From: a virus
Direction: 5' to 3' (one strand)
DNA: 64,000 nucleotides
IMG/VR virus record: IMGVR_UViG_3300031688_001339
Part shown: piece by piece, positions 32,156 to 37,755 of the stretch
How the letters are laid out: every line of letters starts with the position of its first letter
How positions within the stretch are numbered: the stretch's first letter is position 1
Translations under genes and position numbers: made by a program
The notes under the pieces: generated by a model
The model's database searches: none
Told to the model about the DNA's origin: nothing
What the model saw: the letters and a program-made list of their open reading frames with translations, nothing else

Positions 32156-32229
32156 GCGGATATAGTATAAAAGTATTATGAGAGATTTCCAATCTTTAGA
32201 ACTAGGGGCAGTACCTGGTATCCGCTCCA
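32156..32229 (+). tRNA. tRNA-Gly (TCC), atypical D and T loops
   Basis: Acceptor GCGGATA/TATCCGC, anticodon loop TTTCCAA, T-arm CTAGG-GGCAGTA-CCTGG, encoded CCA; no GG in D-loop. Confidence 0.85.
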
Positions 32230-34469: not shown

Positions 34470-34545
34470 GCCCTTTTAGCTCAGCTGGTAGAGCAACTGA
34501 TTTGTAATCAGTAGGTCATCTGTTCGACTCGGATAAAGGGCACCA
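34470..34545 (+). tRNA. tRNA-Thr (TGT)
   Basis: GCCCTTT/AAAGGGC acceptor, anticodon loop TTTGTAA, canonical TTCGA T-loop, encoded CCA, 76 nt. Confidence 0.95.
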
Positions 34546-34948: not shown

Positions 34949-35391
34949 ATGAAGAAGTAACTTGGACACAAGAGAGTATGTTAGAGGTAACCTTGAAGCA
35001 ACCAGACGATTTCCTAAAGGTAAGAGAAACATTAACACGAATTGGTGTTGCAAGTAGAAAAGATAAAACTCTTTTCCAATCATGTCATATTTTACATAAG
35101 CAAGGTAAGTATTACATAGTACATTTTAAAGAGTTGTTTGCCCTAGATGGTAAAAAAGCAACCTTAATAAACAATGATATTCAACGTAGAAATACAATAG
35201 CCGTTCTATTACAGGACTGGAATTTAATTGATATTGTTCTAAAAGAGACAGCAGTATCTAACAAAGCACCATTATCACAAATAAAAGTTTTACCGTTTAA
35301 AGAGAAAAAAGAGTGGATATTATCTGCTAAATATAACATAGGTAAAAAAATTGTTAAGGAAAATGGTCAAGATGAAAATACCAAAGTTTAG
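34945..35391 (+). CDS. regA: Translational repressor RegA
   Basis: DDFLKVRETLTRIG, QSCHILHKQG, VHFKELF. Confidence 0.96.
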   Translation: MNEEVTWTQESMLEVTLKQPDDFLKVRETLTRIGVASRKDKTLFQSCHILHKQGKYYIVHFKELFALDGKKATLINNDIQRRNTIAVLLQDWNLIDIVLKETAVSNKAPLSQIKVLPFKEKKEWILSAKYNIGKKIVKENGQDENTKV

Positions 35392-36841
35392 AGACTACAT
35401 AACAGAGCAAGATAATAGTCGTGATGAAGACAATATCACGGTTGCTATTCTTACTATAAACGATTCAGATAAACCTAATAAGGATTCAACTGTTGAACTT
35501 ATAGAAAAAGCATGTAAAAAGAAGAAGATAGAATGTATTATTGTAAATACTAAATCAGCAATTATCACAGACAAAGACGAAGAAAAGAATACCCTTACAG
35601 TTTATAATTACGATGGTAAAGATGGTGAATACACCTTTACAGGTAGAGATACACTTTGTATAACAAGAGCAGGTGCAGTAGAAGACGAAGCTGGTCTTTC
35701 TTTAATATCTGCCTTTCAAAACTCGTCAGCATTTATGGCTAACACAAGAGCTGCGATGTTAACTTGCGATAACAAACTTACGTCTGCTTTACTATTTGAA
35801 AAATTTGGTATACCTACACCTACAACATCTTTTATATCAAACGAAAAGAATATAAAAGCAGGACTAGATAAGGTTGGTGGTAAATTTCCTATAATCTTAA
35901 AGACATTAACTGGTACACAAGGTATCGGTGTAATCAAAATAGAAAGTTATGAGGGTCTAGTTGCAACAGCACAAGCAATGTGGAAACTAGAGTCTGAACT
36001 TTTGATACAAGAATTTATGCCTACGAAGTTTGACGTTAGAACTTTTGTGGTAGATAACAAAGTTATTGCATGTACAAAAAGAGTACATAGTAGTTATGAC
36101 TTTAGATCAAATACACACAGAGGTGCTGAAGCAGAACCTTACATATTAAGTGAAGAAGAATATGAATTGGTTTTAAAAACTGCTAGAGTTTCAAAAGCAT
36201 ATATGGTAGGAGTTGATCACATAGTATTTAATAATAAACCATACATTTTAGAAATCAATGGTAGTCCAGGATCAGGTGCTGATTACGAGGGTTACCAATA
36301 TAAAGATTACTATTCAGTAGGCGAACCATCTGGAAGAATAGATGGTGAAAAAATGATGGAGTTTTTAGTTGATTATATTTCAGAAAGAAAACATTGGGAT
36401 AGACAAGCACTTTTAGAATGTGGTTGGCTTGAGACAGTTGAAATAGAGGGCATTGCTAAAGTTAGAGCTAAACTTGATAGTGGTAACGGATCAAAAGCAT
36501 GTGCTTTACATGCCGATAAAATTTTAGAAAAAGATGGTAAAATTGTAAAATGGAAATATGACGGTAAGATTTTTAGTAAACCTAAACATGGTGTAAGTAA
36601 AATCTTTAGAGCAAATGCTGAGGGTGAAGAACCATCTGAAATTAGACCTACAGTATTATTAGATATTACATTTAATGGTTTCACATATAAAGATATAGAA
36701 GTTGGATTAGATAGTAGACCTAGAGCTGCTTCAGACTTACTAGTTAATAGAGATTTAATGCGATTGATGAATGTCAGTATAAACCCTAATAGAACATTCG
36801 CCTTGAGCAAACGGTTAAAACCGATAGATAAAAAAGATTAG
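35372..36841 (+). CDS. RimK-like ATP-grasp ligase fused to RimB/retropepsin-like protease domain
   Basis: GTQGIGV, IQEF, DVR, FRSNTHRG, GVD, LEINGSPG; C-terminal AKLDSGNG...RP...LDSR...LLVNR. Confidence 0.8.
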   Translation: MKIPKFRDYITEQDNSRDEDNITVAILTINDSDKPNKDSTVELIEKACKKKKIECIIVNTKSAIITDKDEEKNTLTVYNYDGKDGEYTFTGRDTLCITRAGAVEDEAGLSLISAFQNSSAFMANTRAAMLTCDNKLTSALLFEKFGIPTPTTSFISNEKNIKAGLDKVGGKFPIILKTLTGTQGIGVIKIESYEGLVATAQAMWKLESELLIQEFMPTKFDVRTFVVDNKVIACTKRVHSSYDFRSNTHRGAEAEPYILSEEEYELVLKTARVSKAYMVGVDHIVFNNKPYILEINGSPGSGADYEGYQYKDYYSVGEPSGRIDGEKMMEFLVDYISERKHWDRQALLECGWLETVEIEGIAKVRAKLDSGNGSKACALHADKILEKDGKIVKWKYDGKIFSKPKHGVSKIFRANAEGEEPSEIRPTVLLDITFNGFTYKDIEVGLDSRPRAASDLLVNRDLMRLMNVSINPNRTFALSKRLKPIDKKD

Positions 36842-37064
36842 TCGTTGATAAGAAGACAATAACTATGCAGGACCTCGGTGCAATACCGAGCAACTCCACC
36901 ATTAAACCAAAATTTATGGGGTTGAAATAGGATCGACTCGTAGGTAAAACTTCTAGGAGATTAATCGCTAACATCGTACTGTTAATTAAATGCTAACTCA
37001 CAAGGTTTCGCATTAGCGGCTTAGTCCGCTAGGGGTTTGCCTGTACCTCGCAACAGAAACAGGC
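36838..37064 (+). ncRNA. ssrA: Two-piece (circularly permuted) tmRNA; tag ANSQGFALAA at 36992-37024
   Basis: Acceptor piece ends CAACTCC-A-CCA (36901); coding piece starts GGGGTTG (36918) with G3:U pair; T-arm CTCGG/CCGAG; tag ORF ending ALAA-stop; terminal pseudoknot. Outer ends approximate. Confidence 0.92.
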
Positions 37065-37066
37065 GC

Positions 37067-37095
37067 TTGACAAACCGCTAAATATATGATATATT
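37067..37095 (+). promoter_or_regulatory. Sigma70-type promoter TTGACA-17-TATATT
   Basis: Near consensus upstream of the ferredoxin/gp43 operon. Confidence 0.7.
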
Positions 37096-37120
37096 ATAAC
37101 AATAAACAAAAGGAAATATT

Positions 37121-37426
37121 ATGCAAGAAGTGAAAATATTAAGACTATCTACAGGCGAAGATGTAATTGCTAAGGTAGGAGAAAACGACCAAGGGGTAAG
37201 TTTAAAGAACCCATTTGTAATCATACCACAACAAAAAGCACCAGGACAACCAATACAATTAATGATGTCTTTGTACAATGCGTTTGGTAAAAGCAATACT
37301 ATTACAGTAGCTAAAGATAAAATAGTCTTTATAACAGACCCTAAAGACGAAATCTTAAAATCATACGAGAACAATACAAGCACTATCATTGCACCAAAGC
37401 CAGGACTAATCACAGAGAATAAGTGA
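37121..37426 (+). CDS. Conserved T4-like hypothetical protein (possible Sm-like fold)
   Basis: VKILRLSTGEDVIA; typical position upstream of gp43. Confidence 0.65.
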   Translation: MQEVKILRLSTGEDVIAKVGENDQGVSLKNPFVIIPQQKAPGQPIQLMMSLYNAFGKSNTITVAKDKIVFITDPKDEILKSYENNTSTIIAPKPGLITENK

Positions 37427-37755
37427 TAACTGTTAACTTTATCAGGACAAACAACGAAAAAGTCCAAGTTAAAGTACCTGTTGGTTGGACAGTAATGGAG
37501 GCGGCTAAAGAAGCATGTCTAGATGAAATTCCTGCCAGTTGTGGTGGTTGTTGTGCCTGTGGTACATGTCACGTGTACGTAGGCAATGCCTGGATTGCCA
37601 AACTAGGTGAAATAGATTATAATAGTACTGAACAATGTATGTTAGAATACGAAGCTTCATACAAGAAAGGCATAAGCAGATTGAGTTGTCAACTACCATT
37701 AACAGAGGAACTTGACGGCATAACTTTACATTTACTAGATGATGAACTTTTATAA
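37423..37755 (+). CDS. fdx: 2Fe-2S ferredoxin (adrenodoxin/ISC Fdx type)
   Basis: CGGCCACGTCHVYV ... SRLSCQ. Confidence 0.9.
   Translation: MITVNFIRTNNEKVQVKVPVGWTVMEAAKEACLDEIPASCGGCCACGTCHVYVGNAWIAKLGEIDYNSTEQCMLEYEASYKKGISRLSCQLPLTEELDGITLHLLDDELL

Follow-up and report, generated by a model that had tools for sequence, protein, structure and literature searches.

Is a tmRNA gene found among the replication genes of a marine phage a working part of that phage, or a passenger left behind by a bacterial host? The question is raised by a 64,000-nucleotide (nt) stretch of the IMG/VR virus record IMGVR_UViG_3300031688_001339 (hereafter the window, in whose numbering coordinates are given unless another record is named), in which a sequence-only reading had recognized a two-piece, circularly permuted transfer-messenger RNA (tmRNA, encoded by ssrA). 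Nearly all bacteria rescue ribosomes with tmRNA, and SAR11 and similarly streamlined bacteria dominate the surface oceans. The analysis described here leads to an answer that can be given with high confidence: the locus is very probably a functional two-piece ssrA of the alphaproteobacterial style, as predicted from its sequence, and its carrier a marine, T4-like lytic myophage belonging to the pelagimyophage/Melnitz group. Two-piece phage tmRNAs as such are already published, and annotated in the closest cultured relatives. What lies beyond the literature is a new tag variant, a position by the RegA and RimK-like genes, the absence of a riboswitch, and evidence for a phage lineage of the RNA that is separately selected.

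Identity and anatomy of the two-piece gene

The identification is carried by two kinds of search. ARAGORN, which was blind to the earlier reading, predicts a permuted tmRNA at 36806-37115 and gives its tag as ANSQGFALAA. Two covariance models of Rfam 15 match the same locus, both at full length and above their curated thresholds: RF01849 (alpha_tmRNA) scores 82.3 bits (E 9e-21, gathering 50, model positions 1-355), while RF04321 (tmRNA_permuted), a merged model for permuted tmRNAs dating from 2025 (PMC11915505), scores 88.7 bits (E 1e-15, gathering 47, model positions 1-213). Infernal with the alpha_tmRNA model and ARAGORN were the checks that the sequence-only reading had itself named, and both came out positive, down to an identical tag. 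The order of the elements is that of a circular permutation, in which the CCA end at 36901 is followed by the GGGG start at 36918 and then by the tag at 36992-37024. A chance match was considered and is ruled out by the Rfam scores together with covariation far above that of controls. What the evidence supports is a circularly permuted tmRNA of alphaproteobacterial type, encoded by the phage and reliant on host SmpB.

All of the motifs on which the sequence-only reading had been built, namely the T-arm, the CCA, the spacer, the 5′ half, the pairings between the pieces and the pseudoknot, are found where it had placed them, on the plus strand. The acceptor piece, or 3′ tRNA-like half, spans 36839-36901, as delimited by the RF04321 alignment, the motif coordinates and the covariation of helices 1-5. 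It contains the 5′ strands of three P2 helices, P2c (36839-36843), P2b (36851-36855) and P2a (36863-36867), and a T-arm (36874-36890) whose strands CTCGG (from 36874) and CCGAG (from 36886) enclose TGCAATA (from 36879), that is, a UGCAAUA loop. The piece is completed by CAACTCC-A-CCA (36891-36901), comprising the acceptor 3′ strand (36891-36897), the discriminator A (36898) and an encoded CCA (36899-36901). Next comes an AT-rich spacer of 16 nt, TTAAACCAAAATTTAT (36902-36917), which holds no cargo and is presumed to be excised.

The coding piece (36918-37067) begins with GGGGTTGAAATAGGATCGAC at 36918 and ends in the mRNA-like domain. Its acceptor 5′ strand GGGGTTG (36918-36924) pairs with CAACTCC to form the proposed 7-base-pair (bp) acceptor stem, in which G3 faces a U. 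A conserved GAAATAGGATCGAC (36925-36938) leads to the 3′ strands of P2a (36939-36943), P2b (36950-36954) and P2c (36959-36963). The pairings between the pieces that had been noted by eye, AGAAG at 36851 with CTTCT at 36950 and CTATG at 36863 with CGTAG at 36939, are thus present, and they are supported by covariation. Just 5′ of the resume codon, TAACA and TGTTA close a TCGTAC loop in a pre-tag hairpin (helices 6-7; 36969-36984). After TAAAT, the tag frame (36992-37024) reads GCT AAC TCA CAA GGT TTC GCA TTA GCG GCT TAG, and the ANSQGFALAA reading of it stands. The stop codon TAG (37022-37024) lies, as anticipated, inside a hairpin (helix 8; 37014-37031) composed of TAGCGG, a CTTAGT loop and CCGCTA. 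At the 3′ terminus is an H-type pseudoknot (helices 9 and 10; 37032-37064) that matches the 3′ end of RF01849. Its stem 1 joins 37032-37036 with 37045-37049 (GGGGT/ACCTC), and its stem 2 joins 37039-37044 with 37059-37064 (GCCTGT/ACAGGC), both as first drawn.

Compensatory change across phage copies

Are these helices merely drawable, or are they maintained? An IMG/VR pattern scan with the T-arm/acceptor motif returned 49 contigs, 48 of which hold a permuted tmRNA by ARAGORN. An alignment was made of 31 distinct phage copies, and the helices counted were those of the sequence-only reading plus the added pre-tag hairpin. In this alignment, 91.5% of helix cells hold standard pairs versus 78.8% after shuffling (0 of 500 shuffles as high), and sliding the 3′ partners by 1-3 columns makes pairing fall to 36-48%. 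Both sides change in 28 of the 49 pairs, and the covariation score is likewise reached by none of 500 shuffles. The three inter-piece P2 helices (helices 1-3) are 98.6%, 88.4% and 83.9% paired, with 13 of their 15 pairs changing on both sides; several compensatory pairs are found in each of them, in the T-stem, and in stem 2 of the pseudoknot. At acceptor position 3, the U:G pair is invariant (31/31) and its neighbouring pair covaries (CG 26, AU 4, GC 1). The pre-tag hairpin is 85-89% paired, with the compensatory variants TGACA/TGTCA, GATGT/ACATC and CACT/AGTG in relatives. Stems 1 and 2 of the pseudoknot are 85.8% and 97.8% paired, and stem 2 changes on both sides in five of its six pairs. 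Weakest is the stop-codon hairpin, where 78.5% pairing and both-side changes in one pair only amount to moderate covariation support.

In the aligned copies, then, compensatory change has preserved all predicted helices of the tRNA-like domain and between the pieces, along with the pre-tag hairpin and the 3′ pseudoknot, across the phage lineage. Four putative functional features are also conserved: the alanine identity pair G3:U, the CCA written into the gene, the UAAAU-GCU context of the resume codon, and the ALAA end of the tag. The spacer measures 16-130 nt among related phage copies (16-70 nt in the 31-copy alignment), the window having the minimal, empty version of 16 nt. The longer spacers that were inspected by eye are closed by a stem of 7-11 bp, such as CCACTTC/GAAGTGG in Pelagibacter phage HTVC008M.

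The tag peptide

An in-frame tag of the form AN...(L/M)AA is present in all 48 of the ARAGORN-positive copies from the 49 contigs, and within the phage set the terminal ALAA is written by 12 different 12-nt strings. Given these synonymous versions, the tag is, on the evidence of its codons, under selection at the level of the peptide. The tag of the window recurs identically in four IMG/VR contigs and is absent among 50 tmRNAs read from SAR11-like genomes (the host-like set described below), whose tags are ANDELALAA (16), ANESYALAA (13), ANESYAIAA (8), ANNKLALAA (6) and a few others.

A tag unlike all 50 of the SAR11-like tags that yet keeps the ALAA end lends some weight to an alternative that Buchholz et al. 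(2022; PMC9004378) put forward, namely tagging for recycling. Here the RNA would be a selective tagging device that consigns host proteins, or the products of phage-cleaved host mRNAs, to proteolysis and channels their amino acids into virions, the tag being tuned to a particular protease or adaptor. The neighbouring RegA and RimK-like genes, whose products also act on translation, fit such a scheme. However, the commonest phage tag, ANESYALAA, is also a common host tag, which argues against any general need for a private one, and the surroundings of the gene yielded no phage adaptor or protease. The molecular mechanism would in any case be the same as that of ribosome rescue, and sequence cannot separate the two. 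Selective tagging as the purpose of the gene is therefore rated as possible but doubtful.

Divergence from host copies

How far the phage gene stands from those of its presumed hosts bears directly on whether it is a passenger. An Rfam search of 151 Alphaproteobacteria, whose total includes one genome flagged as unpublished that supports no claim, led to small, AT-rich genomes with short tags, and a host-like set of 61 sampled genomes of 1.0-1.5 Mb, all of one order, gave 60 matches and 50 tmRNAs that were read. Because the genomes are small and AT-rich, and because rhodopsin (proteorhodopsin) is encoded in five of five checked genomes of the order, we infer that it is SAR11. The SAR11-like ssrA resembles that of the window in being permuted, in its short spacer and 9-10 residue AN....ALAA tag, in an identical resume context, UAAAUGCUAAC, and in a 3′ pseudoknot with CAACAGAA. 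It differs in two elements that the phage copy lacks, an additional 5′ hairpin and, ahead of the tag, a CGG...CCG element.

Comparison with SAR11 ssrA and with related phages, which the sequence-only reading had recommended, places the window copy nearer to the phage copies. It is 99% identical to three of the four IMG/VR contigs that share its tag and 70-74% identical to the commonest phage group, while its identity to any sampled cellular tmRNA is at most ~62% (61% for the best SAR11-like copy). Maximum-likelihood analysis puts the phage set on one side of a branch with a value of 94 in the Shimodaira-Hasegawa-like approximate likelihood ratio test (SH-aLRT), a result biased by the fact that the set was picked by its T-loop. 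Two contigs, L228 (4572-4882) and L214 (5455-5768), carry a host-type T-loop, GGCGGUA, together with the host tag ANESYALAA, yet their tmRNAs are nearer to the phage copies (72%) than to the hosts (61%), which indicates that the T-loop type changed within the phage lineage. The surroundings in L228 are pelagimyophage-like (endolysin, PD-(D/E)XK nuclease, gp59 and gp32). On these comparisons of sequence, the phage tmRNAs look like a long-separate lineage and not like recent captures.

The same comparisons tell against the passenger. Passive host DNA with no phage function, whether newly captured or left over from integration at ssrA, is not an idle thought, since capture through temperate phages has been discussed (PMC9004378) and many IMG/VR contigs end in alpha-type tmRNA sequence, as prophages integrated in ssrA would. 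Nonetheless, the gene of the window is complete and no 3′ fragment; the sampled cellular tmRNAs, at no more than ~62% identity, are more distant from it than the other phage copies at 70-74%; the phage copies share one side of the tree branch and have kept their structure while diverging; and the surroundings are a lytic T4-like module in which, among the flanking genes scanned (flanks only), no integrase family occurs. A recent capture or other functionless stretch of host DNA is accordingly considered extremely improbable, and the integration-site remnant was rejected on the completeness of the gene, its divergence from cellular copies and its maintained structure.

The T-arm/acceptor pattern was also sought in representative genomes, where it occurs at 39 loci, mostly in Saccharibacteria/Patescibacteria with one in Rickettsiales, and in no SAR11-like genome; none of the sampled SAR11 species, then, has the phage T-arm. 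The exact T-arm/acceptor string GGAC...GGTGCAATACC...CTCCACCA is found in ~35 Saccharibacteria/Patescibacteria and in one member of the Rickettsiales (Candidatus Sarmatiella), presumably because the tmRNA T-loop has converged. In IMG/VR, more than 120 further contigs have an alpha-type T-arm/acceptor. Among the 80 that were examined, roughly half contain a complete two-piece gene, their tags being highly varied (ANDNYAPEMALAA is one of them), and others are terminal fragments, as expected of prophages integrated in ssrA.

Genomic setting and expression signals

The tmRNA sits in a T4-like replication module encoded entirely on the plus strand. The order is gp44 and gp62 (the clamp loader), RegA (a translational repressor), a RimK-like ATP-grasp protein of 496 amino acids, the tmRNA and DUF6561, followed by a 2Fe-2S ferredoxin, the gp43 DNA polymerase, a GNAT-like protein, an MT-A70 methyltransferase and UvsX; the ATP-grasp, DUF6561, ferredoxin, GNAT and MT-A70 genes were assigned by Pfam. 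The best match of the gp43 protein, at 72% identity, is in Pelagibacter phage Mosig, with cyanomyophages next at 50%, and G+C is 29-37% throughout the window. From the module, the gp43 identity and the base composition, it follows that the window is part of a lytic pelagimyophage-type genome, neither bacterial chromosome nor prophage edge. The host is probably SAR11, with OM43, the host type of Melnitz, as the alternative. The nearest virus record (G001), a fragment of 16.6 kb, has no tmRNA.

Immediately upstream, the RimK-like gene (35351-36841; PF08443 RimK, 5.8e-37) ends in a TAG stop (36839-36841) that doubles as the first three bases of the outer helix of the tmRNA. In Mosig, the ortholog (28% identity, E 7e-55) carries the annotation glutathione synthetase. 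The protein, whose gene lies between RegA and the tmRNA, also has ~190 extra C-terminal residues without a Pfam match. Downstream, the DUF6561 gene (37121-37426) is the ortholog of Mosig_00004, at 68% identity. The tmRNA occupies a 279-nt gap between these two genes, whereas their Mosig orthologs are only 9 nt apart. Synteny with Mosig extends over regA, ATP-grasp, DUF6561, ferredoxin and gp43, and the contigs with the same tag have the same RimK-like/DUF6561 arrangement wherever the flank is long enough. No homologs of gp33, thyX or the PD-(D/E)XK nuclease occur in the 64-kb window; the canonical nuclease/gp33/thyX locus of relatives thus lies beyond it, and the tmRNA at the RimK-like/DUF6561 site is either a relocation or a duplicate.

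These features could be assembled into a bolder account, in which an old virus-borne tmRNA lineage has been evolving alone, with its own T-loop, lost host elements, mixed tags and a variable spacer slot, has here moved into a RegA/RimK-like cluster for translation control, and has acquired with its private tag a distinct tagging regime. In that full form the account is unlikely.

The claim of the sequence-only reading that the window holds no smpB is borne out, as tblastn with a SAR11-like SmpB gives hits only at E>3 in the window. SmpB is also absent from the complete HTVC008M genome and from three partial relatives, and a SAR11-like genome encodes it at 193.8 bits. Without a phage SmpB, host factors are needed. 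A riboswitch, whether of the glutamine (glnA) or another class, was found neither at 36300-37500 (E up to 10) nor, at gathering score, anywhere in the window. A sigma-70-like promoter with 11 of 12 matches (TTGACA, 17 nt, TATATT, with TG; 37067-37095, plus strand) begins 3 nt past the pseudoknot; by its position, this strong predicted site would serve the downstream DUF6561 gene.

In the window, a tRNA-Thr(UGU) at 34470-34545 lies between the clamp-loader genes, 2.3 kb 5′ of the tmRNA. In many HTVC008M-like contigs, tRNA-Thr(UGU) begins right at the 3′ end of the tmRNA (for example, L002 4448-4523), an abutment that suggests one co-processed transcript in those relatives. A third tRNA, at 32156-32226 on the plus strand, scores 41.8 bits with Rfam and has no ARAGORN call. 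Its anticodon loop is read as UUUCCAA (anticodon UCC, Gly), and its T-loop is GGCAGUA, as in alphaproteobacterial tmRNAs and unlike the usual UUCGAAU.

Proposed rescue cycle

How would such an RNA work in an infected cell? By analogy with the two-piece tmRNA of Caulobacter, a single precursor would be made, with transcription either reading through from the RimK-like gene or starting at a weak promoter-like site (about 36803-36831). Enzymes of tRNA processing would cut out the 16-nt spacer, leaving two pieces that remain base-paired. The acceptor would be charged by host alanyl-tRNA synthetase (AlaRS), and the complex delivered by host SmpB and EF-Tu to ribosomes stalled on broken mRNAs. Translation would then switch to the tag frame, append ANSQGFALAA and terminate, and the tagged product would be degraded by host proteases of the ClpXP type. 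The benefit may be that ribosomes, of which a streamlined host has only a small pool, are kept free once transcription of host ssrA stops and mRNA breakage rises. The role during infection may be to replace the host tmRNA or to cope with mRNA cleavage.

Several observations weigh against this functional interpretation. For pelagimyophage tmRNAs, expression, processing, charging and tagging are all predicted steps. The promoter scan finds no sigma-70-like site directly 5′ of the tmRNA and no intrinsic terminator 3′ of it; the weak site invoked above, TTGAGC-N16-TAGATA within the 3′ end of the RimK-like gene, was seen by eye only. Free-energy folding of the two pieces (z = -2.3) misses the short P2 helices, and all that it finds, in them or in the precursor, is the acceptor stem, the T-arm and parts of the 3′ domain, so that the argument for P2 comes entirely from covariation. 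Finally, RF01849 gives 189-244 bits with SAR11-like copies versus 82 here (phage copies, 68-84), and the T-loop is UGCAAUA here versus GGCGGUA or GGCAGUA in hosts; with so low a score and so deviant a loop, full fit to host SmpB and AlaRS is an assumption.

The low score and the deviant loop leave room for altered function, and with it for a decoy that would block host trans-translation by using its tRNA-like domain to titrate SmpB or AlaRS of the host. There is precedent, in that a molecule of mycobacteriophage DS6A consisting only of the tRNA-like domain strongly inhibits tmRNA (PMC4131195). A decoy, however, needs no tag frame, and here the resume codon, the frame, the ALAA end, the stop, the pre-tag hairpin and the pseudoknot are all conserved, the changes being compensatory or synonymous, which makes it very unlikely. 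A functional rescue RNA remains the preferred interpretation.

Phages with their own rescue RNA would show that the freeing of ribosomes limits virus production in streamlined hosts, a point already in print for Melnitz and the pelagimyophages (PMC9004378). To this the window makes an incremental addition, a further tag variant and a different gene position in a related phage genome. A long-separate phage lineage under both structural and coding selection is nevertheless good material for testing which features of tmRNA are indispensable.

Comparison with known systems

The two-piece tmRNA of Caulobacter has the same RF01849 architecture as the gene described here, and a control search matches in Caulobacter vibrioides. 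The Caulobacter RNA, known from the work of Keiler, Shapiro and Williams in 2000, is reportedly a cellular molecule whose tag is longer and whose pseudoknots are more elaborate than here, and its processing and function are said to have been shown experimentally in that work.

Among phages, one-piece tmRNAs were known earlier (Hudson et al., 2014; PMC4131195). The mycobacteriophages of the Bxz1 group and Bacillus phage G have, as here, an ssrA without a phage SmpB, but their tmRNAs are of the unpermuted standard form and their hosts are unrelated (PMC4131195). The impression in the sequence-only reading that phage tmRNAs are mostly one-piece needs correcting, in that two-piece forms are not rare: they make up 53 of 133 unique phage tmRNAs, and 50 of these are marine or aquatic (PMC9004378). 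In the study that reported a two-piece ssrA for Melnitz (Buchholz et al., 2022; PMC9004378), a phage of Methylophilales, a permuted tmRNA was present in 17 of 47 Melnitz/pelagimyophage contigs, phage ssrA genes grouped with Alphaproteobacteria, and the functional ideas were those at which the sequence-only reading also arrived. The Melnitz gene lies directly 5′ of the late coactivator gp33, with thyX beyond, a location given as description more than as a strict criterion, and bears a glutamine (glnA) riboswitch in its 3′ domain, which most tmRNA-bearing relatives do not have (PMC9004378). In this respect Melnitz differs from the window, where none was found.

Mosig, HTVC008M and Melnitz are, like the window, T4-like marine myophages of streamlined heterotrophs. 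In Mosig EXVC030M (MT647606.1), the tmRNA is annotated as SsrA at 111467-111805; the proviso of the sequence-only reading, that annotation in pelagimyophages would lower the novelty of the finding but not the call, therefore applies. The RefSeq/GenBank record of HTVC008M has no annotation at the corresponding locus (NC_020484.1, ~145120-145461), under a full permuted tmRNA with 90.6 bits for RF04321. The published survey lists Mosig as having both tmRNA and riboswitch (PMC9004378), unlike the Rfam 15 scan, in which 110058-113272 of Mosig (the tmRNA ±1.5 kb) contains no glutamine riboswitch at gathering score.

The models that match the window, RF04321 and RF01849, score 93.6 and 67.6 bits in Mosig and 90.6 and 83.8 bits in HTVC008M. 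Both phages have a short tag ending in ALAA, as here, and HTVC008M shares the 3′ pseudoknot sequence (83% identity over 58 nt). Over the gene as a whole, the window tmRNA is only ~59-62% identical to the two, and the tags differ: ANSQGFALAA here, ANFNEYALAA in HTVC008M and, by the ARAGORN reading, GEDNFALAA in Mosig. So do the positions. In Mosig and HTVC008M the tmRNA follows a PD-(D/E)XK nuclease gene and precedes gp33, and a nuclease-adjacent tmRNA is also found in four IMG/VR contigs (L003, L008, L035 and L228), whereas in the window the gene has its place between the RimK-like and DUF6561 genes.

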